A stretch of DNA of 64,000 bases from Marinicella sp. (GCA_965230295.1 OZ246001.1:288001-352000), one strand, 5' to 3'; shown: positions 15,762-52,226, numbered from the stretch's first letter. Translations and numbers: made by a program. The notes: generated by a model not told the origin, from the sequence alone.

Positions 15762-15774
15762 TAGGAGAATTAAC

Positions 15775-16974
15775 ATGAAACCAGTATATATAGTAGAAGC
15801 TGTCAGAACGCCTATCGGTAAAGCACCCAGAGGCATGTTCAACAAAACCCGCCCTGATGACCTTTTGGCCAGGTGTTTGTCAGAAATCATGGGTCGCAAC
15901 CCTTCCTTTGATCCAGCAACCATCGGTGATGTGGTGATTGGCTGTGCCATGCCAGAAGCCGAACAAGGCATGAACGTGGCACGCATCGCCGCCCTGCTCG
16001 CAGGCTTACCGGAAAGCGTGCCAGCCATGACCATCAACCGTTTTTGTTCTTCGGGGATTCAAGCCGTGGCCATCGCTGCCCAGCAAATTGCCACCGGACA
16101 AATGGATGCAGCCATCGCAGGCGGCACCGAAAGCATGAGCATGGTACCCATGATGGGTCACAAAGTGGCGATGAACCCGGCGGTGTTCGATGATGCCTGT
16201 GAAGTAGACAATGCCGTAGCAATTGCCTATGGTATGGGCATCACGGCAGAAAAAGTGGCCGAACAATGGCAAGCCTCACGTGAAGACCAAGACCGCTTTG
16301 CGGTGGAGTCACACAACCGTGCCATCAACGCCATCCAGAACGGTCATTTCAATGATGAAATCATCCCATATGAAATCACCAGCAAAAAGCCGGATTTCAA
16401 TAATGCTGGCAACATCATTTCCAAGCGCACTGTTGACACCGACGAAGGCCCAAGGCCAGGATCTTCGGAAGAAGTGTTGAACAAGTTGCGCCCCGTGTTC
16501 CGCATGGGTGGCTCTGTCACAGCCGGTAATTCATCGCAAATGTCAGATGGTGCCGGTGCCTTGTTATTGGTGAATGAAGAAGTGCTGAAGCGTGACAACT
16601 TGACACCCATTGCCATGTTCCATGGTTTTTCAGTGGCTGGTGTGCCACCTGAAATCATGGGTATCGGCCCAATCAAAGCGATTCCTAAGGTATTGAGCCT
16701 GACCGGCATCAAACAAGATGATTTGGATTGGATCGAGCTGAACGAAGCCTTTGCTGCGCAATCGCTGGCAGTGATTGGGGAGTTGGGTTTGAACCCAGAA
16801 AAAGTCAACCCCAATGGCGGTGCGATTGCTTTGGGTCATCCCTTGGGTGCCACGGGCGCCTGTCGAGCAGCCACGGCCATTCACGGCCTGCGCCGCACTG
16901 GCGGGAAATACGGCATGGTCACCATGTGTATTGGTACCGGTATGGGCGCAGCCGGTGTGATCGAAGCTTTATAA
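15775..16974 (+). CDS. fadA: acetyl-CoA C-acyltransferase (thiolase)
   Basis: INRFCSSG, NEAFA, GHPLGATG and CIGTGMG thiolase motifs. Confidence 0.93.
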   Translation: MKPVYIVEAVRTPIGKAPRGMFNKTRPDDLLARCLSEIMGRNPSFDPATIGDVVIGCAMPEAEQGMNVARIAALLAGLPESVPAMTINRFCSSGIQAVAIAAQQIATGQMDAAIAGGTESMSMVPMMGHKVAMNPAVFDDACEVDNAVAIAYGMGITAEKVAEQWQASREDQDRFAVESHNRAINAIQNGHFNDEIIPYEITSKKPDFNNAGNIISKRTVDTDEGPRPGSSEEVLNKLRPVFRMGGSVTAGNSSQMSDGAGALLLVNEEVLKRDNLTPIAMFHGFSVAGVPPEIMGIGPIKAIPKVLSLTGIKQDDLDWIELNEAFAAQSLAVIGELGLNPEKVNPNGGAIALGHPLGATGACRAATAIHGLRRTGGKYGMVTMCIGTGMGAAGVIEAL

Positions 16975-33268: not shown

Positions 33269-34300
33269 ATGGATACTTTAAACCAATCCCGATACAGCTT
33301 AAAGTCAGTCTGTGCGCTTGTTTTTGCGCTGATATTATCAGCCTGCCAAAGTCCAAGTCCCAGATCTGTCTTTACTGATACCATAGAAGACACACCCATT
33401 GAATTACATACCGTTTTATTGGCATCAAAATGTGAATTAGCCAAAGCATTTGTAGCCATAAAAAATCAGGGTATTGACGTTAAAATCTATGATGGCACCA
33501 TGGAATTCAGCGGCACCATTAAAACAACCAAAGACAAAGGTTTCAGTATTTCTGCTGTCATTCCCCTGGGCGCTGAACATGTGCTAGAACCCGATTTTGG
33601 CTACGGGAATACTGCAGTGACCACCCAAAACATCGTTCTTAAAAACAAACTATCCAGTACAGTTAAAGACACTTCAGTGTGTCAATCACCTACATTAGCA
33701 AATTTTGACACCGGCAACTTTATTTCAGAGGCCATCATCAGCACTGCTGATGGCATTGCATCCATCCCAACTGGACCAGATGGCAAGGCTTATCAGCCGT
33801 CATTGAATGAAACCGAACTTAACATCACCACCTCATTCAACGTTGTGAAACTTAAAAATGGCGGCGTGGCTCTTAAGTATGTCTGGCCAACATCTCGAGA
33901 GCACTTGGATGGACTCACACCAGGTGGAACATTGGATAACTCCATCGATACGACCTACACCTTGACCATTAAACTGCCATTGGTTGCAACAAACCCACCC
34001 GTAGACCCACGTAAAATAATGCGCTGTAAAAATGACATCAGTTCAGGTGAAACCATTTGTATAGAGTCTCCCTATATTGTTAGCGCCAATAAAAATGATG
34101 CCATGGAATATGATGACTTCCCAAGTAGAGGCGTCTTGTGGTTTCTGTCAGAAGAATTCATTCAATGGTTAGGAGAAAATGACCTACTTGGCCAAGGAAA
34201 TATGATGCAACAACAATCCCTGCCTTTCAAACTACCTAAGCAGCCTCCTAAAAACCTAAAAGGCAAAGAAGTAGATGACATCTACACACGAGATCGTTGA
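33269..34300 (+). CDS. hypothetical lipoprotein
   Basis: Lipobox ILSAC; RBS GAGGG; 343-aa beta-rich ORF. Confidence 0.65.
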   Translation: MDTLNQSRYSLKSVCALVFALILSACQSPSPRSVFTDTIEDTPIELHTVLLASKCELAKAFVAIKNQGIDVKIYDGTMEFSGTIKTTKDKGFSISAVIPLGAEHVLEPDFGYGNTAVTTQNIVLKNKLSSTVKDTSVCQSPTLANFDTGNFISEAIISTADGIASIPTGPDGKAYQPSLNETELNITTSFNVVKLKNGGVALKYVWPTSREHLDGLTPGGTLDNSIDTTYTLTIKLPLVATNPPVDPRKIMRCKNDISSGETICIESPYIVSANKNDAMEYDDFPSRGVLWFLSEEFIQWLGENDLLGQGNMMQQQSLPFKLPKQPPKNLKGKEVDDIYTRDR

Positions 34301-34576
34301 TTGATAACAAATAAGATTGATTAATTCACCACAAAATAGACTTTAGTAACTTTAACCGCTTCTGCATCTCCTACCAGCATCATGTGATGTCTTCTTTCAT
34401 CAAGATTTTCTGCGTTGTTGAGGTAGAATTAACTACAGAAGCATAATCATTTGCTGAGATCAGAATCTGACCTTGTTGACTTAATAAACCGTCTCTTTTG
34501 CTGAATGTAATTAGGCAATGGTATTGATTTTGGGTAACGGGCAAATATCTAATGAATGCTAATTAATCTTGAACCC

Positions 34577-35323
34577 TTATTCAACTTCACCTTCAATACT
34601 TGACCAATGATCGTCAAATACGCCTGTAAGTAAATTAGAAACAATAAGAAGACAACATCCAATAATTCCAATTGCCATATTTTCGTTTATTGCGCTTTCA
34701 AAAATCGTATCAACATATTTAAGGTAAAATAACATTACAAAAAATGGAAGTACAACGGGGGCATCTATAAAACGGATTAGACCGACTAGGTATCTTTCTT
34801 GCTTAGTATTTTTGATACCTAACTTGTTTGCTTGACTTTTCACATGTCTCAAAGCAATGTAATTTACGAAAAAAAAGAAGATCAGAGGCATCATAGGAAT
34901 GTAAGGTGCAATACCGTGAATTAAAACGTAGAATGCCTTTCCATCCTCTTGAATTTCAAGCAAAGGAATAAGTTCGCCTTGACTATTAACAACCTTTGTT
35001 TCAAAGAAGATCACAGTTAGTTTTATCAGTATAAAAATGCCAATCACATTGAGCACACAACTCTTAATTCGTGCATTGAATTTTCTAGATGCATACTCAA
35101 AACCGCTAAATTGCATCAGTTTTTGTGCCACAAGAAACACATGAACAAGAGCTGCAATCTCCCAAGCTGCCAAAGGAGGTACTTGCCAACCAACGTAAGA
35201 AGAAAGAAATTTAAGATATGAAGCAATAACAAGAATTACAATAAAAACTATTAAGTGCGTCCAAGCTGAACAGCGAGAATATAGAAAATTCTGAACTCGT
35301 TTGAAATATGAAAAAAAACTCAT
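34577..35323 (-). CDS. hypothetical integral membrane protein (~6 TM), last gene of the island operon
   Basis: Hydrophobic segments; start overlaps the stop of the upstream methyltransferase. Confidence 0.7.
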   Translation of the reverse strand: MSFFSYFKRVQNFLYSRCSAWTHLIVFIVILVIASYLKFLSSYVGWQVPPLAAWEIAALVHVFLVAQKLMQFSGFEYASRKFNARIKSCVLNVIGIFILIKLTVIFFETKVVNSQGELIPLLEIQEDGKAFYVLIHGIAPYIPMMPLIFFFFVNYIALRHVKSQANKLGIKNTKQERYLVGLIRFIDAPVVLPFFVMLFYLKYVDTIFESAINENMAIGIIGCCLLIVSNLLTGVFDDHWSSIEGEVE

Positions 35324-36081
35324 TCTAGTTTCTTCCCAATTATAAGATGATCTTGAAAATCAATTTCTAGGGTTGCATCAGCATATTTCACAAGACGATT
35401 TCCAAATGCTTCCGTCGTAGGAATTGTAGGTCGCCAAAACCTTCTAAGTGATTCAAGTTCAGCTTTGCTAAAACCATCTCCATCTGGAAATTGAAACCGA
35501 GAACGTAGCGTGAATGATGATTCATCGAGATTAAATAGGCGAAAGAGTGATTCAACTTTGTTAGCACAATTTGGCAATGGTGGCAAATCTAGAAAGAAAG
35601 GGCTCTGTTCTGGGAGAACTAAAGCAAACACTGCTCCTCCAGGACGCAAATGAAAATTAATCAAGTCCTTTAATGACTCTTCGAAGTTATCAATGTAGTA
35701 GGTAGAGTGTAAAAACAGAATTGCATCAGTAACATAATCTTCAGGAATTTCTTTGATATTAGAAAACGAATTGTATAGAGGTCCTAGTTTTGATCTTGGC
35801 AAGATATGAGCTTTCACACGTTCTCTAGCCGTTTGTGATGGCTCGACTATCGTTAGTGAAGGGAAGCATCTGGTTTTTGTAAATATCTGTTCGCATATTG
35901 TTTCAGTAGAAGTACCTGTCCCACAACCTATATCTAAAATTGATGTTTGGCAACTCTTGGATGAAGCGTACTTTACAATCGCCCCTGCAATTGCACTTGT
36001 TATTTTATACCAATCATCTGTACTGCAGAACTGTGAAAACAACCTGTAAGAATGATCATGCTTTTTCCAAAAGTCAGACAT
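35320..36081 (-). CDS. class I SAM-dependent methyltransferase
   Basis: Motif I ILDIGCGTG, IVEPS, DAILFLHSTYY and LRPGG. Confidence 0.85.
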   Translation of the reverse strand: MSDFWKKHDHSYRLFSQFCSTDDWYKITSAIAGAIVKYASSKSCQTSILDIGCGTGTSTETICEQIFTKTRCFPSLTIVEPSQTARERVKAHILPRSKLGPLYNSFSNIKEIPEDYVTDAILFLHSTYYIDNFEESLKDLINFHLRPGGAVFALVLPEQSPFFLDLPPLPNCANKVESLFRLFNLDESSFTLRSRFQFPDGDGFSKAELESLRRFWRPTIPTTEAFGNRLVKYADATLEIDFQDHLIIGKKLE

Positions 36082-36730
36082 GTTTAAGTATGTTGAGTTG
36101 TTTATCTTCTAAAAGAAATACAGCATCAAAAGGGATAGTGAGTCTCCTTTGATATAACAATATAGTAATTTGATTTTTATTCCTGCGTATTTTAACAATC
36201 TCTGAAAGAAGACTAATTTGCAGTTTATTACTTGGACATGGAATCTCATCAATGATTAAAAGGAATGGATCTAGAATATATGCATAAAAACAAACCACTA
36301 CCCGCCAAAGATCTGGATTCGAAAGATCTCTCGGATTACATTCTAAATTTTTTGGAAGCGAGTGTTTTTCTGCGAAATCAATGTAAATATTTTCTAAAGA
36401 TAGTTTATCTGTGCCTATCGCATAAGAATATAATTCATTCCGAACGGATGAACCAAGAATAGATAAATGACCAACCTGTTGAATATAGGAAGTAATTTTG
36501 CACCGTTCTGCTGGTGGGGTGACTGCTGGCGATATTCCATTAATGAAATAGCTTCCACTATCAGGTTTAATTAACCCAGCAAGAAGACGACCAAATGTCG
36601 TTTTTCCTGAACCATTGTCTCCAATAATTAAAATGCTCTGCCCAGCATCAAAATTGCAGTTGATACCTGATAAGATTGGAGAGGTGGGCCCATATGAAAA
36701 TTCCAAATTTTTAATTTGCAATGTAGTCAT
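36074..36730 (-). CDS. ECF-type ABC ATPase (Walker A/B intact, signature degenerate)
   Basis: NLEFSY, GDNGSGKTT, LAGLIKPDSG, DLSNPD in place of LSGG, LLIIDE. Confidence 0.85.
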   Translation of the reverse strand: MTTLQIKNLEFSYGPTSPILSGINCNFDAGQSILIIGDNGSGKTTFGRLLAGLIKPDSGSYFINGISPAVTPPAERCKITSYIQQVGHLSILGSSVRNELYSYAIGTDKLSLENIYIDFAEKHSLPKNLECNPRDLSNPDLWRVVVCFYAYILDPFLLIIDEIPCPSNKLQISLLSEIVKIRRNKNQITILLYQRRLTIPFDAVFLLEDKQLNILKHV

Positions 36731-36735
36731 AATAA

Positions 36736-37257
36736 TTATTGTACCTCGATTAATCTTGATCCAGAACTTTCTAGGTTTCTTGCGTTTATCAGGTGGGGTA
36801 TCAATATCTTATTATCGTAATCAACAAATGCTGTATTTAGAATACCTAAATTCTCAAAACCATCCAAAAGTTTTCTGATTGTTGAATCTGAAAGGTGGCC
36901 AATAAAATCGACGAAAAGTAGATTATTACACATGCGATTCGCGAACAGAGATAACGCCAAAACTTTTCGCCAACCACCAGAAAGGTGATACACTTTTTTT
37001 TCAAGCACCCCCTCCCAAGACCAAAATTCTATAAACTGATTACAGTTCATGCGAGCATCCAGACACTTATTTTGATGGCTAACCACAAGGTCAATTTCTT
37101 CGCTAACAAACTGTGTGAGGCATGAATATTCAGCAAAAAGAACCGGAGCAAAATAAATCACTGGCTTATCTATGAATCTCGCAAATTGGTTACATATAGT
37201 TTGCGGACGTTGTTCCATTAAACTCCAATCTGAACAAGATATTTGGTAAAAATTCAT
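36736..37257 (-). CDS. truncated ABC ATPase-like subunit (signature intact, no Walker A)
   Basis: VSEEI, VYHLSGGWRKVLAL and LLFVDF..HL; position in the ECF operon. Confidence 0.65.
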   Translation of the reverse strand: MNFYQISCSDWSLMEQRPQTICNQFARFIDKPVIYFAPVLFAEYSCLTQFVSEEIDLVVSHQNKCLDARMNCNQFIEFWSWEGVLEKKVYHLSGGWRKVLALSLFANRMCNNLLFVDFIGHLSDSTIRKLLDGFENLGILNTAFVDYDNKILIPHLINARNLESSGSRLIEVQ

Positions 37258-37964
37258 AGGCCGTAATTTCGTTGTATGCCGACTAGAAATAACATTACAA
37301 GTGTAATGAAAAGCAACTTTTGCGCTAAAGTCAGTACTGGCTTTCTCGGATTAGTTGGATAAAAGTAGTGAGGACTTCCCACGATTTCTCGATAGCGAAA
37401 TGCATAGGCTGCTTCGCAAATTGCTGATGTTAACAAAGGAACAATCCAAACATTTAGGTGACGAATATGCTGCAATTTCGTTTCCAGCGGTATTCCTCGT
37501 AGAATACTTGTTTCTCGAATAGTTTCAAGCCTTCGTATTAGTCGCTCTCTTGTAGCGAAGACCGAAATAAGTGGTCTAAATGCTCTTAAACCAGTCCAAT
37601 GTGATAACTCGTGAGGTAATCTTTCTCCTTCCAACTCTGAAACCATGAAAAGTCCAGGAAGAATAACAAGAAAATATGCGTACAATGGAAAAGGTAAACT
37701 TTGTATCAGCTTTTCTGCTTCCAATAAGTCTAAATTGCCGTTAATTATCAATGTCATCATAAAAACATATACAAATGTAAACATTACCAGCAGTAATGCT
37801 GATGACCACTTTTTCCGTATTATGAGAAAAATTGGTAAAATTGTGACACAGATCGCTAGATATAATAATTTCTCACCAAGAAAGTACTCAGCACTATTTT
37901 TAAATAGAAATGATACCAAATAAAGCCCTACCAACACGAATACTGTAAAGTTTGGTGACTTCAT
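37254..37964 (-). CDS. putative ECF transporter transmembrane (T) component
   Basis: N-terminal TMs; IRETSILRG and VPLL...A...RE resembling the two EcfT X-R-X motifs; between the S component and the ATPases. Confidence 0.65.
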   Translation of the reverse strand: MKSPNFTVFVLVGLYLVSFLFKNSAEYFLGEKLLYLAICVTILPIFLIIRKKWSSALLLVMFTFVYVFMMTLIINGNLDLLEAEKLIQSLPFPLYAYFLVILPGLFMVSELEGERLPHELSHWTGLRAFRPLISVFATRERLIRRLETIRETSILRGIPLETKLQHIRHLNVWIVPLLTSAICEAAYAFRYREIVGSPHYFYPTNPRKPVLTLAQKLLFITLVMLFLVGIQRNYGL

Positions 37965-37966
37965 CT

Positions 37967-38542
37967 TTATTCATTTAATGGTTTTGTTTGTGATCGAAGT
38001 CCAAAATCTTTAAAAAACCTTCTAGGAAGGGAACGAAGAATGAGACAAGCAGATATTGACACTAATATCTTGTCAACAATTTCAGAAGAGATTCCAGATA
38101 AAATCACTGAGTTTAAAATATTTTGACCAGTTTGTCGTATTAGGGCTGTTAACAAATCTACACCACTGGCAGTCACACCACCAAACAAATAAGCAGTCAC
38201 TGGTGCTGAAACAATTGCTGCAACCAGAGCCAGAATAATGCCAGCAATAACGCTTGATCGGATATTTCGGAACATTTGTTTTTTTGTAAGCAACTCACAA
38301 GTGATTACAAGGGCTATAAGGGTCGCAGAGTATGCTGGCAAGTATGGGTTGATTATTAAGAAGCCAACTCCTACAGTAATTGAACCGGTTAATAGACCAT
38401 ACCGCCATCCGAGAAGTACAGTTGAGAGAATCAGGCCAATCGAGTCTAAATAGATTGGTAATTTCAACCATGAAACTATCCCACCTATTGTTAAATTGAT
38501 AGCGGCCAATGCCAGAGCAATTGATGTTTTTTGAATATTCAT
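37967..38542 (-). CDS. ECF transporter substrate-specific S component (STY3230-like family)
   Basis: AINL.IG....LKLPIYLDSIG, LFGGVT.SGVD and GQNILNSV......VDK. Confidence 0.82.
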   Translation of the reverse strand: MNIQKTSIALALAAINLTIGGIVSWLKLPIYLDSIGLILSTVLLGWRYGLLTGSITVGVGFLIINPYLPAYSATLIALVITCELLTKKQMFRNIRSSVIAGIILALVAAIVSAPVTAYLFGGVTASGVDLLTALIRQTGQNILNSVILSGISSEIVDKILVSISACLILRSLPRRFFKDFGLRSQTKPLNE

Positions 38543-38965
38543 CTTCAAAATTATTTACATGTAATAAATGCTGAACCCATTTTGTATATAAAAAATATAT
38601 CTAGATATTTTGATAATCACTTCAATATATCCTTACTTCCGAACTGAAGGAAAAAATTTTATTAATAATACACAAGACTTGCGTATAAATAAACAATATT
38701 TTACTTTCGATATGTGCAAATAATATTTTAATTACAATTACACTGTAAAATACAGACATGTAAAATTAGCTACTATCGAGGAATGTATCGAGAACCTGAA
38801 ATCAAATATTGCTAGAATTGAGTCTGAAAGAGCATGAACTTAATCCGGACTAGAAATTATATGAACCCGGGTTCAATAATCATAGTGGCCAATTTTCAAG
38901 TGTATTTTACGCCTCATATTACACTCTTGATTTAACCCATTAATGACTTAAACAATAAATAATTT

Positions 38966-42453: not shown

Positions 42454-42481
42454 TTGACAAAAATGTGCAAAGCTTTAAACT
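42454..42481 (+). promoter_or_regulatory. sigma70-like promoter TTGACA-N16-TAAACT upstream of the adhesin
   Basis: Perfect -35 and plausible -10, ~90 nt upstream of ATG 42570. Confidence 0.4.
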
Positions 42482-42569: not shown

Positions 42570-45500
42570 ATGGGCCGTCACATCACAGCAGCGTTCTGCT
42601 TTCTCTCATGCATTGCATTTTCTTCTGTTCAAGCGCAAGATCGTTACTATCATGTTTACATCGACAGTGACAATGAAACCACCACTGGGTGTGATGTCAA
42701 CATCCCGGATTTTGCCACCACACTTAATGGCATAGACTCAAGGGTCACCATCACCACCAACAGTGCTTTACCACCTGCCATTACCAACAGCAGTATACAC
42801 ACCTGTACGGGTGCCGCCTTTGATGCGGGTGTGCCCGTTAATGCGGCTGCATTGGGCTTCAACACGGGCTTCAACGGTTCTGATGTGTTTGAGACCAGTA
42901 TTGACCGAACTGATTTGCTTCACACTTCGCAACGCAGCCTGCGCGCTTATTTTGCCACCGACACTGCGGTTGCAGATGATGTGGTGCTGACCAACAGTGG
43001 CGGTGGTGCAATCCTGTTGGGATTCCCTTTTGCCATCCCTACTCTCAGTCTATTCGGTTTATTGCTGATTGCCATGCTGGTTTTACTGGCTTCAAGAAAA
43101 CAGCTCCACAAGCGAATCATGGTTTCTGTGGTATTGGTTGGCGTAGCGACAGTGGCGCTTGCCATGAGCATTGTGGTCGATGGTCAAACCAATGACTGGA
43201 TGAATATCGGGCCGGCTAACACCGATCCCGTTGGTGACACTTCTGCAGCAGGTAATTATGCAGATTTAACTGCCGTCTATTTGACTCAACAAAATGATGT
43301 CATTTTCTTCCGCATGGATGTATCCGATTTGGAAAACCAGGCACCCACAATCACCACAGCTGCAGCAGTCAGCGTGGTTGAAAACCAGACAGCAGTTATT
43401 GATGTCAATTCAACTGACCCAGAAGGCGATGTTGAAGGCGCTGGTTTAAGCTACACCATCACAGGTGCTGTTGATGATGCCCTGTTCACAATCAACCCCA
43501 ACACTGGAGTTCTGACTTTCCTGGTAGCGCCAGATTTCGAAAACCCAAGTGATGTGGGTGCAGACAATGTGTATAACGTGCAAGTCACAGTGACCGACTC
43601 TGGGGCCGCCACCGATGTACAAGACCTGGCTGTCACCGTCACCAATGATGTGGTGGATGACACTTCCGTGGCATTCCAAACAGCCAACAGCAACACCGTT
43701 GATGAAGGCACTGCATTGAATGTGGTTGTACAGCTAACTGCATCAGCACCACTGACAGCGGCGGTATCTATCGACGTAGTGGATGCTGGCGGTGGTTCTG
43801 CCACCAGTGGCTCTGATTACACCGCATTCGGCACACAAACGGTGACGTTCCCAATGGGCGCCACCAATGGCACAACACAGAATGTCATTTTGACTCCCAA
43901 TGATGATGTCAATGTAGAAAACAACGAAACTGTCAATCTACAACTGCAAAATATCAGTGGCCCGGCATTAATTGGCAGCCAAACGGCTCATGTGGTCAGT
44001 ATCACAGAAGATGATGTGGCAACAGTTGAATTTGATACCGCTGCCAGTGGCACAGTTGATGAAAACACTCCATTGGATATAACTGTACGATTAAACATTC
44101 CCAGTGGCGGGCAGTTAGATGTTGCCGTCAGTGCAGATGTGGTTGATGCAGGCACCGGAACCGCGACCAGTGGGGTTGATTACACCGCTTTTGGTACCCA
44201 AATGGTGACATTCCCAATTGGCTCAACCAACGCCAATACACAAAACACAACGCTAACGCCATTGGATGATCCTAATTCAAAAGGCAATGAAACAGTCGAT
44301 TTAGCTTTACAAAATTTAACCGGACCACCAGCGGCATCACTGGGTACTCAAACCACCCACACAGTCACCATTACTGATGATGAAGCCGCAGTATCATTCC
44401 AAGTTACCAGCAGCTCAACGGTAGATGAAGGCACTAACCTGAATGTGGCCGTGGTATTGAGCACACCAATTCCCTTAACGGCACCAGTTTCAGTGGATGT
44501 GATTGACGTTGGTGGTGGATCTGCCATCAGTGGCACAGATTTCATCGCCTTTGGCACCCAAACTGTGACTTTCCCATTGGGTTCAACCAATGGCACCATC
44601 CAAAATGCGGTGTTATCGCCGATTGATGACAACAATGTAGAAAACAATGAAACCGTGAATTTAGAGCTACAAAACCTGGTTGGTACTGGATCGATAGGCA
44701 CTCAAAACACACACACAGTGACCATCACAGAAGACGACACAGCCAGTGTGGCATTCCAAGCGGCCAGCAGTGCAACGGTCAATGAAGGTACGCCACTGAA
44801 TATCAGTGTATTATTGACCATCCCGAGTGGTGGCCAATTAGACATCGCAGTTTCTGCCGATGTGATCGATGCAGGTGGTGGATCAGCCACCAGTGGTGTT
44901 GATTACAATGTTTTTGGCACCCAAGCCATAACATTTCCTGTGGGTACTGGAAACGGTGCCACACAAACCTCAACTTTAACGCCCATCGATGATCCAAATT
45001 CAGAAGGCAATGAAACGGTCAATTTGGCGTTGCAGAATCTAGTTGGACCCATTTCGGCTTCCTTAGGAGCGCCAACCGCCCACACGGCCACGATCACCGA
45101 TGACGAAGCTTCTGTGGTGTTCCAAAATATTGCCAGCTCGACCATTGATGAAGGCACAGCTTTGAATATACCAGTGGTGTTATCAACCCCAATTCCATTG
45201 GGTGCACCTTTGTCTGTTGATGTGGTCGATGCCGGCGGTGGGTCAGCCACCAGTGCTGCAGATTACACGGCCATTGGCACACAAACCGTCACTTTCCCAA
45301 TGGGTTCTACCAATGGTGCCACGCAGAATGCCAATTTCAACCCCATCGATGACACCAATGTTGAAAACAATGAGACGGTCAATTTACAGTTACAAAATCT
45401 GGTTGGTTCAGGTTCGATTGGCACCCAATCCACACAAACCATCACCATCACTGAAAATGATACTGCCACGGTTGAATTCCAGGCTGCCAACAGCGCCACA

Positions 45501-48500
45501 GTAGATGAAAGCACTGCACTGAATATCAATGTGCTATTAAACATCCCCAGTGGTGGCCAGTTAGATGTTGCGATCACTCTGGATGCCATTGATGCCGGTG
45601 GTGGTTCTGCCACCAGTGGTGTAGATTACACCGCTTTTGGCACCCAAATGCTGACTTTCCCTGTTGGTTCAAACGATGGTGCGACACAAAACACCACACT
45701 CACCCCGCTTGATGATGTTGCTACCGAAGGTGACGAAACGGTTAATTTACAGTTGCAAAACCTGGCTGGGCCAATACTGGCTGGTTTGGGTGCACAGACC
45801 ACCCACACCGCCACCATCACTGATGATGACAACACCGCCCCAACGGCCAACCCGGACAGCTATGAAACAATTGGTAACACCGGGCTCAATGCCACTGCAG
45901 GTGCACCATCCACTCCGATACTGCACCCCCAGAATTTGATTTTCAACGACACCGACCCAGAATTGGATCCATTGGTGGTGTCTGAAGCCATGGGTGACTT
46001 GACAGCTCCATTCACAGGAACAGGTACTATGGGCGGTGATGTCGTGGTGCAAGCCAATGGTGATTTCACCTACTACCCACCAGTGGGTGTAACCGGCATT
46101 ACTGACACCTTTGATTACACCGTCAGTGATGGCAGCCTCACTTCATCAGCAACCGTATCAATCACCGTCACAGCCGATTTGGTTTATTATGTAGATAACA
46201 CCGCTGCAGCTGGTGGTACCGGTCGAGATGATGCTCGTTTTGACCAACTGTCAGATGTTCCGGCGGCAGCTGCCAACACCACTGTCTTTGTTTTCCAAGG
46301 TGCCGGTGATACCACAGGTGCCATCACCATGGGAGCCAACCAAGTCTTGATTGGTAATGGTGTCAATCTGGAATTCAATGTCAACAACACCTTACCCAAT
46401 CCAGATGTTTTGATTCCTGCTGCTGGTCGTCCAACATTAACCGGAACCTCAACTTTGGGCACCAACAACACCATCAGGGGCCTGAACATTGGTAACACGG
46501 GTGCTCAGACAGGCATCACAGGTAACAACTTTGGTACCGCCACCATCAACAATGTGGCCATCAACGGTACCGGAAAAGCCCTTGACTTAACCACCGGTAC
46601 AGCAGCAATGACTTTTGATTCAATTGCTTCAACCAACAGTGCTTCTGAGGGTGTTGACCTCAGTGAAGTGAGTGGTAATTTCACAGTTACGGGACTGACA
46701 AACATCACCAATCCAGCACAAATTGGGGTGAACATCCAAAATTCCAATTTGATCTATACTTTTGGCGACGTCACAGTGAACAACCGCAACAGTGCAGGTG
46801 TGTTCATCAATGCCTTCACTGGTGGAACTCAAACCGGTACATTCGGTAATGTGGTCATCAACAACCAAAACACCTCTCCTTCCACGGCCTTTGGCATCGA
46901 CAACACGGTTACTGGTGGTAGTATCATCAATGTGGCCAGCGTGGCCATCGACAACAATGGGTCTAACAGTTCAGCCATCGCCCTGTCTAACAACGATGGC
47001 GCCACCATCAACATCAATGGCGGCAGCGTACAAGGTGCAGCGGGTGCGGCTGTGAGTATATCCAGCAGTGCAGGCAATGCAACTTATGCAGGATCGATCA
47101 ACAACACAGCTGGACGTTCACTACAGGTGTTGAACAACACAGGTGGTGTGACCACCCTATCAGGAAACATCACTGATTCCGGGACTGGCATATTCGTAAA
47201 TAACAACACTGGATCCACCATCAACTTCTCAGGAACCATTGACTTAGACACCACCACCAATACCGCATTCACAGCAACTGGCGGTGGTACCGTAAATGCC
47301 ACTGGCAGTAGCAGCACCATCAACACCAGCAGTGGCATCGCAGTGGATGTGCAAAATACCACCATTGGAGCCAGTAACCTGACATTCCAAAGCATCTCTG
47401 CCGGGACTGGTGCAGGCACAGCAGGGGTTGGCATCAACTTGGTCAATACGGGAAATGCAGGTGGTTTGGCTGTTACAGGAGTGGCCTCCAACGCCAGTTC
47501 TGGCGGTGTCATTCAAAATAAAAATGGCGCCAATGGCAGCACCGCTGGAGGCATTGGTATTCACCTGAACAACACCAGTAACGTTTCACTGAGAAACATG
47601 CAATTGGGCGGCTTTGATAATTTCGCCATACGTGGCACCACAGTGACCAACTTCACCATGATCGATTCTGTGGTCAATGCCAACAGCGGTAATTCAGCAG
47701 CCGATGATGAAGGCGCCATCAGTTTCACCAACCTGTTGGGTACGTCAGTCTTTTCAGGCAACAATGTGGCTGGTGGTTTTGAGGACCAAATCAAAATAAC
47801 CAATACCACAGGAACCTCCAGCATCACCGTTAATGACAGCGCCAATGATGCAGCTGTGATTGGCCTGGATGCCAACCCGGCAGGTACCAATGGCAATGAT
47901 GGCATCTTGGTCGAAAGCCAGATGGCTGCACAAATTAATTTAACCGTAGATGGTGTTGAATTCTTGGGCGCCCGTGGTGACATGATACAAACCAATGCAT
48001 TGAATACATCAAACTTCACGACTTTGATTCAAAACAACAGTTTCAATAACAGCCACCCTAACATTGTACCTGGCGGTGGCGGCATCACCTTATCCGGTGG
48101 TGGGGCGGGTGCCAACATCACCAAAGGCTATGATGTGTTGAATTCCAATTTCACCGGGGCTGTGGGCAATGCCACCACAGTTAATTTTGTTTCAGGTGCT
48201 GGTACCGTCAGTGGCGAAGTCACTAACAACATGGTCGGCACCAATGGTGTACCAGCCTCTGGCTCCACAACTGCCAGCGGGATTTCGATTGGTGCCTCAG
48301 CCAATGTACAACACAACACCACCATTGATAATAATCAGGTCAGGGGTGTCAGTGGTTTTGCCGGCATTGAAACCGTAGCCAATACCGATGTCAACTTCAA
48401 TGCCACCATCATCAATAATGTGGTTGAACAACTGGCAGGAAATGTACTCGGTGCCATGTACAACCTGGTTGGCGGAGCAGGCACTGAAACGGGTACTGCT

Positions 48501-48797
48501 TGCTTAGATGTAAGAAGTAATACTTTTGATGCCAGTGCTGCCCCATTTGCGGGCCACGCCGTATTAAAAGATCAGATCAGTGCTACTGCCAACTTCAATT
48601 TGCCAGGTTATACCGGATCGCCTAACGGCGAATTTGCCTTTGCTTGTGCAACTGGCACTGCCGGTGTTAATGCTGGGGCCCATCATGCCGGAAATTTCAA
48701 TACCATGACCAATGGGCCCTTCCCGTTTATTGTTGGTGGTGTGGATGCCACCATTGTTTGTGGCATGACAGGCATAGGCACCAGCTGCCCGCAATAA
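42570..48797 (+). CDS. giant surface adhesin: signal peptide, internal IPTL sorting signal plus second signal, cadherin, 6x Calx-beta, Ig-like domain, beta-helix
   Basis: AIPTLSLFGLLLIAMLVLLASRKQLHKR at aa ~155-182; cadherin APDFENP.D...DNVYNVQV; Calx-beta SATSG.DY...NETV.L.L repeats; PTANPDSY...DTFDYTVSDG; N/G/T-rich solenoid C-terminal half. Confidence 0.88.
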   Translation: MGRHITAAFCFLSCIAFSSVQAQDRYYHVYIDSDNETTTGCDVNIPDFATTLNGIDSRVTITTNSALPPAITNSSIHTCTGAAFDAGVPVNAAALGFNTGFNGSDVFETSIDRTDLLHTSQRSLRAYFATDTAVADDVVLTNSGGGAILLGFPFAIPTLSLFGLLLIAMLVLLASRKQLHKRIMVSVVLVGVATVALAMSIVVDGQTNDWMNIGPANTDPVGDTSAAGNYADLTAVYLTQQNDVIFFRMDVSDLENQAPTITTAAAVSVVENQTAVIDVNSTDPEGDVEGAGLSYTITGAVDDALFTINPNTGVLTFLVAPDFENPSDVGADNVYNVQVTVTDSGAATDVQDLAVTVTNDVVDDTSVAFQTANSNTVDEGTALNVVVQLTASAPLTAAVSIDVVDAGGGSATSGSDYTAFGTQTVTFPMGATNGTTQNVILTPNDDVNVENNETVNLQLQNISGPALIGSQTAHVVSITEDDVATVEFDTAASGTVDENTPLDITVRLNIPSGGQLDVAVSADVVDAGTGTATSGVDYTAFGTQMVTFPIGSTNANTQNTTLTPLDDPNSKGNETVDLALQNLTGPPAASLGTQTTHTVTITDDEAAVSFQVTSSSTVDEGTNLNVAVVLSTPIPLTAPVSVDVIDVGGGSAISGTDFIAFGTQTVTFPLGSTNGTIQNAVLSPIDDNNVENNETVNLELQNLVGTGSIGTQNTHTVTITEDDTASVAFQAASSATVNEGTPLNISVLLTIPSGGQLDIAVSADVIDAGGGSATSGVDYNVFGTQAITFPVGTGNGATQTSTLTPIDDPNSEGNETVNLALQNLVGPISASLGAPTAHTATITDDEASVVFQNIASSTIDEGTALNIPVVLSTPIPLGAPLSVDVVDAGGGSATSAADYTAIGTQTVTFPMGSTNGATQNANFNPIDDTNVENNETVNLQLQNLVGSGSIGTQSTQTITITENDTATVEFQAANSATVDESTALNINVLLNIPSGGQLDVAITLDAIDAGGGSATSGVDYTAFGTQMLTFPVGSNDGATQNTTLTPLDDVATEGDETVNLQLQNLAGPILAGLGAQTTHTATITDDDNTAPTANPDSYETIGNTGLNATAGAPSTPILHPQNLIFNDTDPELDPLVVSEAMGDLTAPFTGTGTMGGDVVVQANGDFTYYPPVGVTGITDTFDYTVSDGSLTSSATVSITVTADLVYYVDNTAAAGGTGRDDARFDQLSDVPAAAANTTVFVFQGAGDTTGAITMGANQVLIGNGVNLEFNVNNTLPNPDVLIPAAGRPTLTGTSTLGTNNTIRGLNIGNTGAQTGITGNNFGTATINNVAINGTGKALDLTTGTAAMTFDSIASTNSASEGVDLSEVSGNFTVTGLTNITNPAQIGVNIQNSNLIYTFGDVTVNNRNSAGVFINAFTGGTQTGTFGNVVINNQNTSPSTAFGIDNTVTGGSIINVASVAIDNNGSNSSAIALSNNDGATININGGSVQGAAGAAVSISSSAGNATYAGSINNTAGRSLQVLNNTGGVTTLSGNITDSGTGIFVNNNTGSTINFSGTIDLDTTTNTAFTATGGGTVNATGSSSTINTSSGIAVDVQNTTIGASNLTFQSISAGTGAGTAGVGINLVNTGNAGGLAVTGVASNASSGGVIQNKNGANGSTAGGIGIHLNNTSNVSLRNMQLGGFDNFAIRGTTVTNFTMIDSVVNANSGNSAADDEGAISFTNLLGTSVFSGNNVAGGFEDQIKITNTTGTSSITVNDSANDAAVIGLDANPAGTNGNDGILVESQMAAQINLTVDGVEFLGARGDMIQTNALNTSNFTTLIQNNSFNNSHPNIVPGGGGITLSGGGAGANITKGYDVLNSNFTGAVGNATTVNFVSGAGTVSGEVTNNMVGTNGVPASGSTTASGISIGASANVQHNTTIDNNQVRGVSGFAGIETVANTDVNFNATIINNVVEQLAGNVLGAMYNLVGGAGTETGTACLDVRSNTFDASAAPFAGHAVLKDQISATANFNLPGYTGSPNGEFAFACATGTAGVNAGAHHAGNFNTMTNGPFPFIVGGVDATIVCGMTGIGTSCPQ
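43662..45830 (+). repeat. intragenic tandem repeat: three A-B pairs of Calx-beta domains, 723-bp period
   Basis: Conserved Phe codons at 43674, 44031, 44397, 44754, 45120 and 45477 (alternating 357/366 nt). Confidence 0.9.
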
Positions 48798-48871
48798 ACA
48801 CAATAATATTGTGAAGCTGCATATGTTTTTGTTGTATAATAAAGTAGATATATTTTAAAGGGGGATATCAA

Positions 48872-49378
48872 ATGTCAGAACCATTTTTGGCCGAAATCAG
48901 GATGATGGGCTTTAATTTCGCACCCAGAGGATGGGCACTTTGTGATGGACAAATCTTGCCCATCAACCAAAACCAGTCGCTGTATTCGTTGTTGGGAACC
49001 ACCTATGGTGGTGATGGCCGCACTTCATTCGCATTGCCTGAGTTGCGTGGCCGCACACCTATCCATGTAGGACAAGACGGTGGGAGCAGTTTTACCGAGG
49101 GTCAACAGGGCGGCGAGGAAGCCCATACACTGACCATCAGTGAAATACCACAACACAAGCATGACGTACACACGTCAGCCAATGATGGTAATGCACCGAT
49201 TCCTGTAGACAATACCTTGGGTGGCTTTAACAACGGTTATAACAGTGGCAGCAACCTGCTTAACATGACCAATGAAGTGGCCAATGCTGGCGGCGGCCAA
49301 GCTCATAACAACATGCAACCTACCTTGGCGGTGAATTTTTGTATCGCCCTACAAGGTTTGTTCCCACCAAGAAACTAG
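48872..49378 (+). CDS. phage tail collar domain protein (microcystin-dependent protein-like), copy 1
   Basis: EIRMMGFNFAPRGWALCDGQIL...LYSLLGTTYGGDG..FALPELRGR; HKH; AHNNMQP. Confidence 0.9.
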   Translation: MSEPFLAEIRMMGFNFAPRGWALCDGQILPINQNQSLYSLLGTTYGGDGRTSFALPELRGRTPIHVGQDGGSSFTEGQQGGEEAHTLTISEIPQHKHDVHTSANDGNAPIPVDNTLGGFNNGYNSGSNLLNMTNEVANAGGGQAHNNMQPTLAVNFCIALQGLFPPRN

Positions 49379-49387
49379 GAGGTCATC

Positions 49388-49906
49388 ATGTCAGAACCAT
49401 TTGTAGGCGAAATCAGAATGTTTGCCGGGAACTTTGCCCCTCGTGGCTGGGCTTTTTGTGATGGGCAATTACTTGCTGTGTCGCAGAATGACGCTTTATT
49501 TTCACTGTTGGGTACCATCTATGGCGGTGATGGCCGAACCACTTTTGGCTTACCGGATATGCGAGGTCGCATTCCCAACCATGCAGGAACTGGCCCTGGC
49601 CTTTCACCCAGACCACTTGGACAAAAAACGGGCAGTGAAAATGAAACTTTAACCGTTAATCAACTGCCATCACACAATCATGACATGTCGGTATCGACAG
49701 ATGCAGGTACTCAGAGCACCAGCAACGGGCAATATTTGGCCTCATCGCCGAATGTGCGTATTTTCAGACCAGCCGGTCCCAACAGTTCACTGTTGAATAC
49801 ATCAGTGACTAACTTTGGAGGCAGCGGTTCACACGCCAACGTGATGCCATTTTTGTGTGTGAATTTTATCATCGCATTGGTTGGAATTTATCCAAGTCGC
49901 ACCTAA
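49388..49906 (+). CDS. phage tail collar domain protein, copy 2
   Basis: GEIRMFAGNFAPRGWAFCDGQLL...YGGDGRTTFGLPDMRGR; HNH; RBS GGAGG. Confidence 0.9.
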   Translation: MSEPFVGEIRMFAGNFAPRGWAFCDGQLLAVSQNDALFSLLGTIYGGDGRTTFGLPDMRGRIPNHAGTGPGLSPRPLGQKTGSENETLTVNQLPSHNHDMSVSTDAGTQSTSNGQYLASSPNVRIFRPAGPNSSLLNTSVTNFGGSGSHANVMPFLCVNFIIALVGIYPSRT

Positions 49907-49916
49907 GGAGCTTATC

Positions 49917-50441
49917 ATGTCAGAACCATTTATTGCAGAAATCAGAATATTCGCAGGTAACTTTGCTCCCAGGAGCTGGGCCTTTTGTAATGGCCAATTG
50001 TTACCTATTGCACAAAACACCGCATTGTTTTCTTTGATCGGCACCACATATGGTGGTGATGGAAGAACCACCACTGCCTTACCTAACTTACAAGGCCGTG
50101 CACCCATGCACCCTGGCCGTGGGCCAGGACTCACAGATCGACGACTGGGTCAAAAAGGTGGTACGGAAACCGTCACCCTTAACGATAATCAGATACCAAG
50201 TCATAACCACAACCTCAACACTTCTACATCACCAGGTACCTCTTTCAGTCCAACAGCGTCTGCTTATTTATCAAGAAGTGTGGGCGGCAATGCATATGAC
50301 AGTGGTGACAACTTGAGCAGTGAAATGAACACTGGCGCCTTACAAAACATGGGCGGCAGCCAGGCTCACAACAACATGCAACCTTTCTTGGCGATTAATT
50401 ACATCATCGCTCTGCAAGGATTGTATCCTTCCAGAGGTTAA
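49917..50441 (+). CDS. phage tail collar domain protein, copy 3
   Basis: Start MSEPFIAEIR after RBS AAGGAG; YGGDGRTTTALPNLQGR; HNH; AHNNMQP. Confidence 0.9.
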   Translation: MSEPFIAEIRIFAGNFAPRSWAFCNGQLLPIAQNTALFSLIGTTYGGDGRTTTALPNLQGRAPMHPGRGPGLTDRRLGQKGGTETVTLNDNQIPSHNHNLNTSTSPGTSFSPTASAYLSRSVGGNAYDSGDNLSSEMNTGALQNMGGSQAHNNMQPFLAINYIIALQGLYPSRG

Positions 50442-50443
50442 TC

Positions 50444-50797
50444 ATGAACAGAAGAAATTTTGCCAAAAACATCATCGGTGGTTTAGGACTGTCAATGGTT
50501 GCAGGTCAAACCGTACACGCTGCCAACTCTGAAAAATCAGCACAGCCCTTTGAGGCCGGACACCAAATGCAAACAGCTGATGGCATGAAAATGACACTCA
50601 GCCAGCACTCTTTAGCCACCCAAAATCAGGATCGCCAACAGTTCATTTTGACATTTGATGTGCACAATAACACCGCACCATTAACTGAGAAAATATACCG
50701 ATTGAAAGATCATAACGGAGTGAACCATGAGATCTTTATGAGCCCTGTAGGTAAACAAAAACTACAAGCCTTATTCAATTGGAGAACTCATGCATGA
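50444..50797 (+). CDS. DUF6916-like protein with a twin-arginine (Tat) signal
   Basis: MNRRNFAK...VHA signal; QFILTF...IY.L.....EIFMSPVG...LQALFN. Confidence 0.7.
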   Translation: MNRRNFAKNIIGGLGLSMVAGQTVHAANSEKSAQPFEAGHQMQTADGMKMTLSQHSLATQNQDRQQFILTFDVHNNTAPLTEKIYRLKDHNGVNHEIFMSPVGKQKLQALFNWRTHA

Positions 50798-51332
50798 AGA
50801 ATGGCTGGCATTTAACGGTGCAGCCAAACTGATTCCTGAGGAAATCACTTTTCAAGCCATGTCAGATAATGACATGGCTTTTTTATCTGAACTTTATCGC
50901 ACCACACGGTGGCAAGAAGTGCAACAGGCACCTTGGAATGACGAACAACGCAAGTCCTTCTTACACCAACAGTTCACCGCCCAACACCAGCATTACCTGA
51001 CTCATTATCCAAATGCACAAAAGTTGCTGATCTTGAAAAATCAACAATGCATAGGCAGGATTTATTTGGACCGTGATGAAGATTCAATCTGCCTGATTGA
51101 TGTGGCCATATTGCCCAATCATCACCGACAAGGAATTGGTACTGCTATATTGAAGGAGTTGCTCACTGAGGCACAGTTGTCACAAAAGAAAGTAATGATC
51201 CATGTTGAAAACTTCAACCCCGCATATCAATGGTATGAAAAACACGGGTTCCGGCAAATTGAAGACAAAGGTGTGTACCAATACATGGAATGGTACCCCA
51301 TACCTAAAGGTCAGGTGAATACAGCCTCATAG
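50790..51332 (+). CDS. GNAT family N-acetyltransferase
   Basis: QQFTAQHQHY..HYP, IGRIYLDR, DVAILP.HRQGIGT and NPA..WYEKHGF. Confidence 0.9.
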   Translation: MHEEWLAFNGAAKLIPEEITFQAMSDNDMAFLSELYRTTRWQEVQQAPWNDEQRKSFLHQQFTAQHQHYLTHYPNAQKLLILKNQQCIGRIYLDRDEDSICLIDVAILPNHHRQGIGTAILKELLTEAQLSQKKVMIHVENFNPAYQWYEKHGFRQIEDKGVYQYMEWYPIPKGQVNTAS

Positions 51333-51604
51333 TGCACTTCACTGTCATTACCAAAAACAGGAACCAAAAACAAATCGAACTCACCTAATTCCGTGTGACT
51401 GACCCGATAAACCCCTTGTTCATAAACCATTGGATCGGGATTTTTAAACACCACTGAAAACTGCTTTTCACCTTTTTCATTAGGAGTCGCATTTGAAACA
51501 GTGATTTCTTTGATATCACACTTGTCAGGCTGATCTTGAGTGAACTTTATGGAAAAACTATCGTCTTGGTGACTTTCAAACTGATGTAATTGAGGTAGAT
51601 TCAT
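51311..51604 (-). CDS. DUF6916-like protein (no signal peptide)
   Basis: QFSVVF......EQGVY...H..LG..DLFLVPV......YEAVF. Confidence 0.78.
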   Translation of the reverse strand: MNLPQLHQFESHQDDSFSIKFTQDQPDKCDIKEITVSNATPNEKGEKQFSVVFKNPDPMVYEQGVYRVSHTELGEFDLFLVPVFGNDSEVHYEAVFT

Positions 51605-51683: not shown

Positions 51684-52226
51684 TCAGAACGGATTCAGCG
51701 TAAATCCTTGTTGTTGCAGCTGAGCATGTGCTGTCATGGCAGACAGAGACATTTTGATGCCAGGCAGCAAGTCTTCTGTTTTGACTCCATAGTAAGCAGC
51801 GCTTTGGCCACAAACATAAAACTGAACGCCCTTTTCTTGTAAAGCTTTTATCAATGTGGCATGGCTTTTCTTATCAATCGACTGAGTACTGTCGTGGCTG
51901 GATTGACTGACATCTTTAACAGCTCCACCATGAATGACGACTGCCAATTCAATATTCTCCACAGGAACGCCAGCCGCCGTGTGCATATTAATAAAACGAG
52001 CCGCACTTTCGATAGATCGGTTGATATCACCTGCATTGGCCGCTTTTGCCACATCGAAACTGATTCTGAATGTACTCCCAGAATCAATAGGTAGCCTACC
52101 CGGAACATCGGCATACATGCCAAAATCCGGAATGGTTGTTCCCGCTTTGAACTTGTCCAGTTGGGCCATGGGTTGATTGCTTACCAACACCAGAAAAAAC
52201 AGCATTAAGGATTTTGATTTGAACAT
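51684..52226 (-). CDS. secreted DsrE/DsrF-like protein
   Basis: Signal peptide; ARFINMH..AGVP, VVIHGGA and GVQFYVCGQS. Confidence 0.8.
   Translation of the reverse strand: MFKSKSLMLFFLVLVSNQPMAQLDKFKAGTTIPDFGMYADVPGRLPIDSGSTFRISFDVAKAANAGDINRSIESAARFINMHTAAGVPVENIELAVVIHGGAVKDVSQSSHDSTQSIDKKSHATLIKALQEKGVQFYVCGQSAAYYGVKTEDLLPGIKMSLSAMTAHAQLQQQGFTLNPF

Follow-up and report, generated by a model that had tools for sequence, protein, structure and literature searches.

Proteins annotated as 'phage tail collar' (COG4675/MdpB) occur in thousands of bacterial genomes with no function assigned, and for two of them, RhiB and MrpB, the question dates back to the 1990s. In phage T4, gp12 carries a zinc on its three-fold axis. 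The C-terminal parts of the T4 short tail fiber gp12 and of the baseplate protein gp10 (1OCY, 1PDI, 5IV5; PF07484, PF21939) combine a collar with a head and have a His-x-His (HxH) motif. RhiB, of the Rhizobium rhiABC(D) genes, and MrpB of Microcystis are COG4675 collar proteins with no assigned function (PMC13133039, PMC6969944, PMC3328848). Three PF07484 proteins of the virophage DSLV2 are reported to co-purify as a heterotrimer of about 58 kDa and to bind Synechococcus cells (PMC12724248), and lipopolysaccharide has been proposed as the receptor of these tripartite tail proteins (PMC12724248, J Virol 2025). In Acaryochloris marina three 'phage tail collar' genes (AM1_3688-3690), the adjacent AM1_3687 and the acetyltransferase gene AM1_3686 are described as changing together in expression (PMC11633204). 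We have analyzed a stretch of 64,000 nucleotides of Marinicella sp. (GCA_965230295.1 OZ246001.1:288001-352000), from now on the window, whose positions serve as coordinates throughout. It contains a cassette of seven genes coding for a giant envelope protein, three collar paralogues (A, B and C), two DUF6916 proteins, one of them with a twin-arginine translocation (Tat) signal, and a GNAT acetyltransferase (Table 1). This cassette is real, complete, conserved, widespread and non-viral, and is built on a shaft-less fiber tip of three chains. The best supported reading is that it makes an exported recognition knob.

A preliminary description of the region, made from its sequence, had proposed these seven genes as a co-directional run closed by a convergent DUF6916 gene. 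The coordinates, domains and spacing that it gave were all borne out by Pfam and the open reading frame (ORF) calls, and so was the layout. The giant gene and collar A are on the same strand with 74 nt between them. The gaps between collars A and B (9 nt) and B and C (10 nt) contain GGAGG and GGAG, the Tat-signal DUF6916 gene starts 2 nt past collar C, the GNAT gene overlaps the latter by 8 nt, and the convergent DUF6916 gene overlaps the 3' end of the GNAT gene by 22 nt. All three collar proteins matched PF07484 with 95.7-105.2 bits (cut-off 24; E values from 1e-28 to 2e-31). The Gp10_C head (PF21939) was detected in A (29.7 bits, cut-off 27), gave 20.8 bits in C and no row in B. Among the best sequence matches in the PDB were a long tail fiber and T4 gp12, with E values of 1e-6 to 4e-5. 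No NCBIfam match was found for the collar proteins, the DUF6916 proteins or the giant protein. In these proteins of 168-174 residues the collar domain begins at residue 7-8, leaving no N-terminal shaft or attachment domain. The T4 proteins, on the other hand, are homotrimers with a long shaft and a baseplate attachment, while here we find three distinct chains, shaft-less, and no virion.

The relationship among the three paralogues was examined in a tree of 63 collar proteins from 21 loci, the window plus 20 foreign triplet loci (out of the 28 found in the first census sample described below; most of the eight omitted ones were on short contigs). The tree consists of three old clades, and each locus contributes one member per clade, except for one locus (L046) and another (L048) that is uncertain. 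The member of clade C is the third gene in 19 of 20 loci, and the order of A and B is swapped in three. When the paralogues were typed by their tree distance to the window proteins, the one-of-each pattern was recovered in 9 of 21 loci only, and the topology was used instead. The three window proteins have the HxH motif, and none of the 20 sequences of any clade departs from it; a Cys, a later His-x-Asn and several Gly and Pro are also invariant per clade. Such a constant set of one copy per type is to be expected of an obligate 1:1:1 trimer. The heterotrimer put forward in the preliminary description fits this pattern, and the analogy with DSLV2 also points to it. Most likely the three chains form a single mixed, shaft-less binding knob. 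In a predicted four-chain complex that includes them, the collar chains had predicted local confidence (pLDDT) values of 89-91. The likeness to the lineage of DSLV2 and Aquatic Virophage 1 extends to the gene arrangement, since both have three consecutive co-oriented small PF07484 genes. However, the DSLV2 genes adjoin capsid genes and their products are thought to be mounted on the capsid, whereas those of the window are on a chromosome with a GNAT gene, two DUF6916 genes and a giant gene.

Collar matches were found in 20 of the 24 species genomes of the genus, and 17 of these have exactly three; among good-quality genomes the figure is exactly three in 17 of 18. We fetched 13 genus loci and compared their gene order. 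The six small genes (collars A, B and C, then the Tat-type and the convergent DUF6916 genes with the GNAT gene between them) are present in all 13 and ordered as in the window, and in 11 a giant orthologue precedes collar A. Of the other two, one contig (L062) ends at that point, and in the congener G407 (L051) collar A adjoins lolA with no giant gene between. In 10 of the 13 loci the cassette is flanked by ftsK-dsrE and lolA; the other three have the same seven genes at another place. In two of the three genomes with a relocated cassette ftsK adjoins lolA without dsrE, the two genes being 75 and 54 nt apart. Because the relocated blocks keep the seven genes and the bare ftsK-lolA junctions have no dsrE, the seven genes behave as a unit without dsrE. 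The DsrE-like gene (51684-52226, minus strand), which codes for a secreted protein and at 10 of 13 genus loci separates the cassette from ftsK, had been a candidate member and was rejected, being absent from the three relocated cassettes. In median identity to the window proteins the GNAT (69%) and the collars (67-69%) came before the two DUF6916 proteins (55-56%) and the giant (48%); LolA and FtsK, taken as comparison, had 64% and 91%. Estimates of dN/dS for all six small genes, from the few unsaturated genus pairs (proportion of synonymous differences, pS, below 0.5), were between 0.01 and 0.5, and these genes are under purifying selection. The locus is a non-viral gene cassette, present as a complete copy and kept by vertical descent. 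Variation inside the collars is uneven. The first ~95 and last ~35 residues are near-invariant in the genus and residues ~98-145, after the HxH motif, vary freely. Omega in this head segment was 0.16-0.22 in A and C, against 0.01-0.06 in their scaffold, and was not higher than the scaffold in B.

Outside the genus we used two independent samples. The first was an even set of 401 genomes of the host phylum, in which DUF6916 was found in 42 genomes and Collar in 90. Among the matches listed, 43 of 47 DUF6916 (39 of the 42 genomes) were at 5 kb or less from a Collar. The 150 Collar matches listed (there were 37 further ones) form 29 triplets, 10 pairs and 43 singles, with DUF6916 within 5 kb of 23 of these 29 triplets. 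Beside the 20 fetched triplets a GNAT homologue was present in 17 and DUF6916 in 16; in the high-GC loci of this set the counts of neighbors rest on homology matches and on Pfam of chosen large ORFs. Neither was found at L046, whose collar proteins are N-terminally extended and form a branch of their own; for these reasons we consider it a different, phage-like kind. The second sample comprised the best 80 relatives of collar B, one genome per species, with 48-89% identity to the window protein, the nearest being Marinicella species. According to our assignment from the organism names, they belong to Pseudomonadota, Acidobacteriota, Chloroflexota, Planctomycetota, Bacteroidota, Myxococcota, Verrucomicrobiota, Gemmatimonadota, Bacillota and Actinomycetota. 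At least three collars were counted in 58 of the 80 loci, the GNAT in 54 and DUF6916 in 50. In the 40 loci with full 10-kb flanks the corresponding figures were 31, 32 and 27, plus 8 with a Tat-type DUF6916. The co-occurrence of triplet, GNAT and DUF6916 that the preliminary description had expected is strong. The core of the cassette is three collar paralogues, one per ancient type, with a dedicated GNAT and DUF6916, in many phyla and outside phage contexts.

The cellular collar proteins previously described differ from this core. RhiB and MrpB ('microcystin-dependent protein') are alike in being cellular, non-phage proteins with a collar domain, but the Rhi and Mrp operons, compared by their description, have a single collar protein, the Pfam-less partners RhiA and RhiC and quorum-sensing regulators, and no triplet, GNAT or DUF6916 is reported for them. 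No gene of the LuxR or LuxI type was found among the Pfam-annotated neighbors of our locus, a search that did not extend to RhiA and RhiC. The statement of the preliminary description that no mechanism was known for such clusters agrees with our literature search, which found no paper describing the cellular cassette, although the supplements of PMC12724248 and PMC13133039 may list bacterial homologues. In several loci of alphaproteobacterial type (L036 at 11153-16450, and also L041, L044, L049 and L050) the triplet is beside an Asn-synthase-like, two sulfotransferase and an HPr-kinase-like gene, a set that resembles tailoring or lasso-peptide-type clusters; sulfotransferase genes flank the triplet also in L037 and L048. 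Two DNA sequencing runs (X1 and X2) contain contigs of the host and, besides, contigs of another organism (depth 915 and 169) about 80% identical to the collar segments 49385-49485 and 49912-50062. Cassette-bearing organisms may be abundant in that community.

Given the viral relatives of the collars, a decaying or domesticated prophage or tailocin, with its other genes elsewhere in the chromosome, had to be considered. The three collar proteins do match tail-fiber families of PHROG over practically their full length (residues 7-165), in addition to T4 gp12 in the PDB. The genome, however, is a single closed contig of 4.0 Mb, rated 97.9% complete, with exactly three Collar and two DUF6916 matches, all at this locus. 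The families Phage_sheath_1 (PF04984) and GPW_gp25 (PF04965) gave no match genome-wide, with matches in the control genomes, a result that also bears on a type VI secretion system, and none of the ten upstream ORFs is a phage gene by Pfam. The claim that the locus is not a prophage, a tailocin or an extracellular contractile injection system was thus right, and a contractile-tail locus elsewhere in the genome, looked for by the sheath and gp25 markers, was not found. The broader claim that phage genes are missing holds for sheath and gp25 genome-wide, a search that did not include capsid, lysis or integrase genes. DUF6916 has no match in PHROG, and the conservation of the cassette across the genus under purifying selection is also contrary to a remnant. 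The best 80 viral loci look different as well. Most have one longer collar protein with the domain deep inside, after 30-760 residues that correspond to a shaft; 10 have at least three small collar proteins, and the cassette GNAT is found in 4 and DUF6916 in 1. A phage remnant is already contradicted by these data and we give it practically no credit. Among IMG/VR contigs, two (L149 and L151) have six to nine small collar genes in tandem, and four with a viral label (L146, L148, L150 and L152) have a collar triplet with the cassette GNAT. They may be host flanks included in prophage calls, or phage-borne copies.

The variability of the head suggests another possibility, namely a released or surface weapon or a recognition lectin directed at other cells, bacteriocin-like or acting as kin tag and with head loops specific to the strain, for which the GNAT would provide self-protection or tailoring. 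A hypervariable head over an invariant scaffold is what it would look like, identities of 50-77% across phyla suggest transfer, and tailoring-type neighbors (sulfotransferases, Asn-synthase-like, HPr-kinase-like) are found elsewhere. Nevertheless, no toxin domain was detected in the six small proteins by Pfam or NCBIfam, PADLOC gave no match among all seven proteins, omega of the head is below 0.25, and in the genus the cassette is near-universal and syntenic instead of strain-variable. We regard a weapon or lectin of this kind as very unlikely.

DUF6916 (PF21880) was detected in both small proteins, with 32.6 bits in the one of 117 residues and 77.2 bits in the one of 97 (cut-off 27). The family has a conserved Y-E/Q-A-V-F-N/T at the very C-terminus. 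The model of the 97-residue protein (pLDDT 93.4) is a short helix and a six-stranded barrel. Foldseek found nothing with E of 0.001 or lower for this model (weak rows were Psb28 and tail-tube/Hcp-like folds), and a protein atlas search returned DUF6916 clusters exclusively. We predicted a four-chain complex of collars A, B and C with the 97-residue DUF6916 as scored partner, in three runs and with three controls. The scores were 0.47, 0.35 and 0.48 for the complex and 0.00, 0.00 and 0.15 for the controls, a result graded as 'weak support'. In the calibration behind this grade 58 of 80 solved complexes attained the mark, as did 2 of 110 mismatches; those at 0.60 or lower were 7 of the solved complexes and both mismatches. 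The three runs agreed in at least 85% of contacts, with pLDDT of the DUF6916 partner of at least 82. The preliminary description had the collar trimer matured by the GNAT and by DUF6916 chaperones; the predicted contact (0.47 versus 0.15 in the best control) weakly favors a binding of DUF6916 to the trimer.

The second DUF6916 protein gives a hint about location. Its RRxF motif, hydrophobic core and small-x-small site are found in the window protein and in 13 of 13 genus orthologues, and Tat-type DUF6916 proteins occur also in three other genomes of the class, one with a lipobox. The latter is in a gammaproteobacterial locus (L033, 10603-11055, minus strand), in which the lipobox LMAGC follows the twin-arginine motif, so that this DUF6916 would be a Tat-exported lipoprotein. 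TatC is encoded in the genome (227.7 bits). The conservation of the signal makes the export of something folded plausible. Since the collars are signal-less and the Tat gene starts right after collar C, the simplest route would be co-export of the folded knob with the Tat-type DUF6916, at least in this lineage, as gene arrangement and signals suggest. Such hitchhiker export is known in Escherichia coli for hydrogenase-2 (HybO/HybC) and dimethyl sulfoxide reductase (DmsA/DmsB). The resemblance lies in a signal-less folded partner encoded beside a small twin-arginine protein, but the known cases are cofactor-containing redox enzymes, while here co-export is deduced from the genes. It would not be a general rule, as most loci elsewhere have no Tat-type DUF6916. 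From the earlier proposal of folded export, the Tat signal, kept through the genus, stands; its generality does not.

The GNAT matched Acetyltransf_1, Acetyltransf_7 and Acetyltransf_10 with 46-49 bits, above the cut-offs. Its best NCBIfam row was RimI (TIGR01575), with 40.9 bits against a cut-off of 86.4, and it is not a member of this family; it may work like RimI all the same. A start directly at the collar domain is possible in 288 of 301 distinct cellular collar ORFs. The second residue is Ser in 162 and Ala in 80, and N-termini of this sort are acetylated by enzymes of the Rim type. That the GNAT acetylates the N-termini of the three collar chains is our preferred guess for its role, and only a guess; the maturing role that it had in the preliminary description is likewise conjectural.

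The giant protein starts with a signal peptide and a domain of ~130 residues, followed by an IPTL-like segment, a second signal-peptide-like segment, cadherin, Calx-beta repeats, Big_9 and a solenoid. The IPTL-CTERM-like motif is internal (residues 155-176 of 2075) and not C-terminal, with scores of 19.5 bits (cut-off 20.8) in one search and 22 bits in another. After it come basic residues, a second hydrophobic stretch and an AxA-like site just before 'VVDGQTNDW', an arrangement kept in 11 of 11 genus orthologues and in a genome of the same order at 32% identity. Residues 1-210 (42570-43200) look like a small sorted protein fused before a second pre-protein. The C-terminal ~700 residues were modeled by AlphaFold2 (AF2) as an all-beta solenoid with a mean pLDDT of 76.8, ending in a Cys-containing tail whose last 72 residues are below 50. 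The best Foldseek rows for this model were all parallel beta-helix proteins, none of them significant. The genome is unusually rich in giant proteins, with 23 ORFs of at least 1500 residues and 204 of at least 800.

A flanking ORF of at least 1500 residues is present at 28 of the 80 loci, and at 19 of those 40 that have full flanks, versus 8% of random spots drawn from the window's own genome; the same holds for 11 of the first 20 foreign triplet loci. Pfam of 15 such ORFs confirmed them as real genes and gave Big_9 in 7, Cadherin_4 in 6, He_PIG in 5, Cadherin_5 in 5, and Calx-beta, Autotransporter and IPTL-CTERM in 2 each, two being unrelated enzymes. The giant is an accessory at about half of the loci and of several unrelated kinds. 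The link between the cassette and giant envelope proteins is real but loose, and tied to no single domain. That the collar module is mounted on or beside the adhesin, as the preliminary description put forward, is a conjecture. These data bear on the idea that the small genes are biogenesis factors of the giant, the trimer and DUF6916 chaperoning or capping its solenoid and the GNAT acetylating it. The short same-strand gap after the giant gene, with no convincing terminator, would agree with such a role, as would the solenoid region (residues ~1300-2050), the only part shared with foreign cassette giants, at four loci (L032, L034, L039 and L040). Nonetheless, giants elsewhere are unrelated (autotransporter, IPTL-CTERM and GlyGly-like C-termini), about half of the loci have none, and G407 keeps the six small genes intact without one. 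We consider a biogenesis role highly unlikely.

A more elaborate model, which we judge quite unlikely, is a fiber built in trans. The giant's three-sided, single-chain solenoid would be the shaft and the knob its docked tip, the latter being folded and N-acetylated in the cytoplasm with DUF6916, exported by Tat and docked on the shaft. Because a shaft of this kind has no three-fold symmetry, each paralogue would meet a different face and the tip would have to be a heterotrimer, which would explain why exactly one of each ancient paralogue is kept everywhere. If true, bacteria would have borrowed phage fibers to make a recognition organelle, and Tat hitchhikers would include a new class.

We favor, by a modest measure of probability, an exported heterotrimeric recognition knob that works with DUF6916, Tat, GNAT and giant-protein steps. 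These steps are given here in falling order of confidence, and we infer those that come after the heterotrimer. A, B and C would fold into a 1:1:1 knob with an axial metal held by six His, two from each HxH motif, as in T4 gp12, and the variable loops would bind a ligand, most likely a surface glycan. DUF6916 would be a direct partner of the knob, either assembly factor or adaptor. In this lineage the Tat-signal DUF6916 would carry the folded, signal-less knob over the inner membrane as a hitchhiker. The GNAT would acetylate the free Ser or Ala N-termini, which begin directly at the collar domain. Finally, the knob in the envelope would work with the giant beta-solenoid protein encoded upstream, without being strictly dependent on it.

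Several observations weigh against this exported knob. All three collar proteins lack a signal peptide, and a Tat-type DUF6916, detected by a crude motif of two Arg plus a hydrophobic stretch, is present in only 16 of the 80 loci. Many copies are thus without a visible export route, and the knob may act in the cytoplasm. The head loops show no positive selection (omega 0.07-0.22, never above 1). The best VIA-align hit of DUF6916 was a split barrel like YcgR-N/PilZN (Z 8.0, root-mean-square deviation 2.5, 81 aligned), within the range of chance. The score of the predicted complex is weak, and by its calibration more often wrong than right unless the pairing was likely beforehand. The Ser and Ala at position 2 may simply be inherited, and no Lys is invariant in the collar clades, so there is no pointer to a side-chain target either. 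As to the giant, ORFs of at least 800 residues within 3 kb were not enriched (47 of 80 loci versus 46% of random spots), and this criterion was dropped as uninformative. In G407, besides, the six small genes persist with no giant found: the N-terminal 310 residues of the window's giant as query gave nothing anywhere in that genome (99% complete), and gave one strong match in each of two control congeners.

The same facts could be read as an intracellular module. The collars would stay in the cytoplasm as abundant soluble proteins. Their ligand would be cytoplasmic or in the inner leaflet, the GNAT would modify it or a small molecule, and the giant neighbors would reflect shared regulation or islands only. 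Relatives of RhiB and MrpB are said to be abundant soluble proteins. Together with the missing collar signal peptides, the scarcity of the Tat type and an adhesin dispensable in cis, the cytoplasmic nature of the GNAT and of the commonest form of DUF6916 agrees with it. The Acaryochloris collar genes, the hypothetical gene and the acetyltransferase are reported as co-regulated with light-harvesting genes (PMC11633204). Against the module stand the Tat signal, which neither the window nor any of the 13 genus orthologues has lost and which belongs to a gene starting 2 nt past collar C, the approximately four-fold enrichment of proteins of at least 1500 residues beside the triplet, and the relocation of the seven-gene block, adhesin included, as a unit in three congeners. 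The fold is that of extracellular receptor-binding tips, and the DSLV2 homologues are reported to bind cell surfaces (PMC12724248). On balance we find the intracellular module rather unlikely, and return to the exported knob as our preferred reading.

The cassette gives the collar proteins defined partners: the paralogues are a fixed set of three, the acetyltransferase is private to the cassette, and DUF6916 and, in many cases, a giant protein of the envelope go with them. The genus is moreover a natural experiment, since its cassettes occupy two chromosomal sites and one species is without the adhesin. If the mixed trimer and the Tat hitchhiking are true, a viral receptor-binding tip would have been reused for bacterial surface recognition in at least 10 phyla.

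Table 1. Coordinates of the cassette genes and associated features in the window
Feature	Position	Strand	Basis
Giant envelope protein / adhesin, 2075 aa	42570-48797	+	ORF; Pfam Calx-beta, Cadherin, Big_9
Collar paralogue A, 168 aa, shaft-less fiber tip	48872-49378	+	PF07484, HxH motif, Gp10_C-like head
Collar paralogue B, 172 aa	49388-49906	+	PF07484
Collar paralogue C, 174 aa from ATG (longest ORF from TTG 49881)	49917-50441	+	PF07484
DUF6916 protein, twin-arginine signal peptide, 117 aa	50444-50797	+	PF21880; MNRRNFAK..., VHA-A site
Cassette-specific GNAT acetyltransferase, 180 aa, without signal peptide	50790-51332	+	Pfam GNAT families
Cytoplasmic DUF6916 protein, 97 aa, convergent	51311-51604	-	PF21880; six-stranded split beta-barrel
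Promoter-like site 5' of giant gene, TTGACA-16-TAAACT, 10/12	42454-42481	+	Motif scan
Internal IPTL-CTERM-like motif of giant protein, residues 155-176	43032-43097	+	Profile score
C-terminal beta-solenoid region of giant protein	46257-48794	+	Model and cross-locus similarity

A terminator scan gave nothing convincing and, like the promoter scan, was no richer than shuffled sequences. The promoter scan found 11 sites in the region against 14.7 expected from shuffled sequences, and the promoter-like site in front of the giant gene is a weak lead only, because shuffles hold as many such sites. By Pfam, the upstream neighbors of the cassette are LolA, RarA/MgsA and CrcB, and downstream are the secreted DsrE-like protein and FtsK. 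Farther upstream, six co-oriented genes on the minus strand (34000-38600) have a G+C of 0.35-0.36, versus ~0.45 elsewhere. They code for an ABC ATPase, a methyltransferase, an ECF-transporter-like protein and three proteins with no Pfam match, and this run may be an acquired island.

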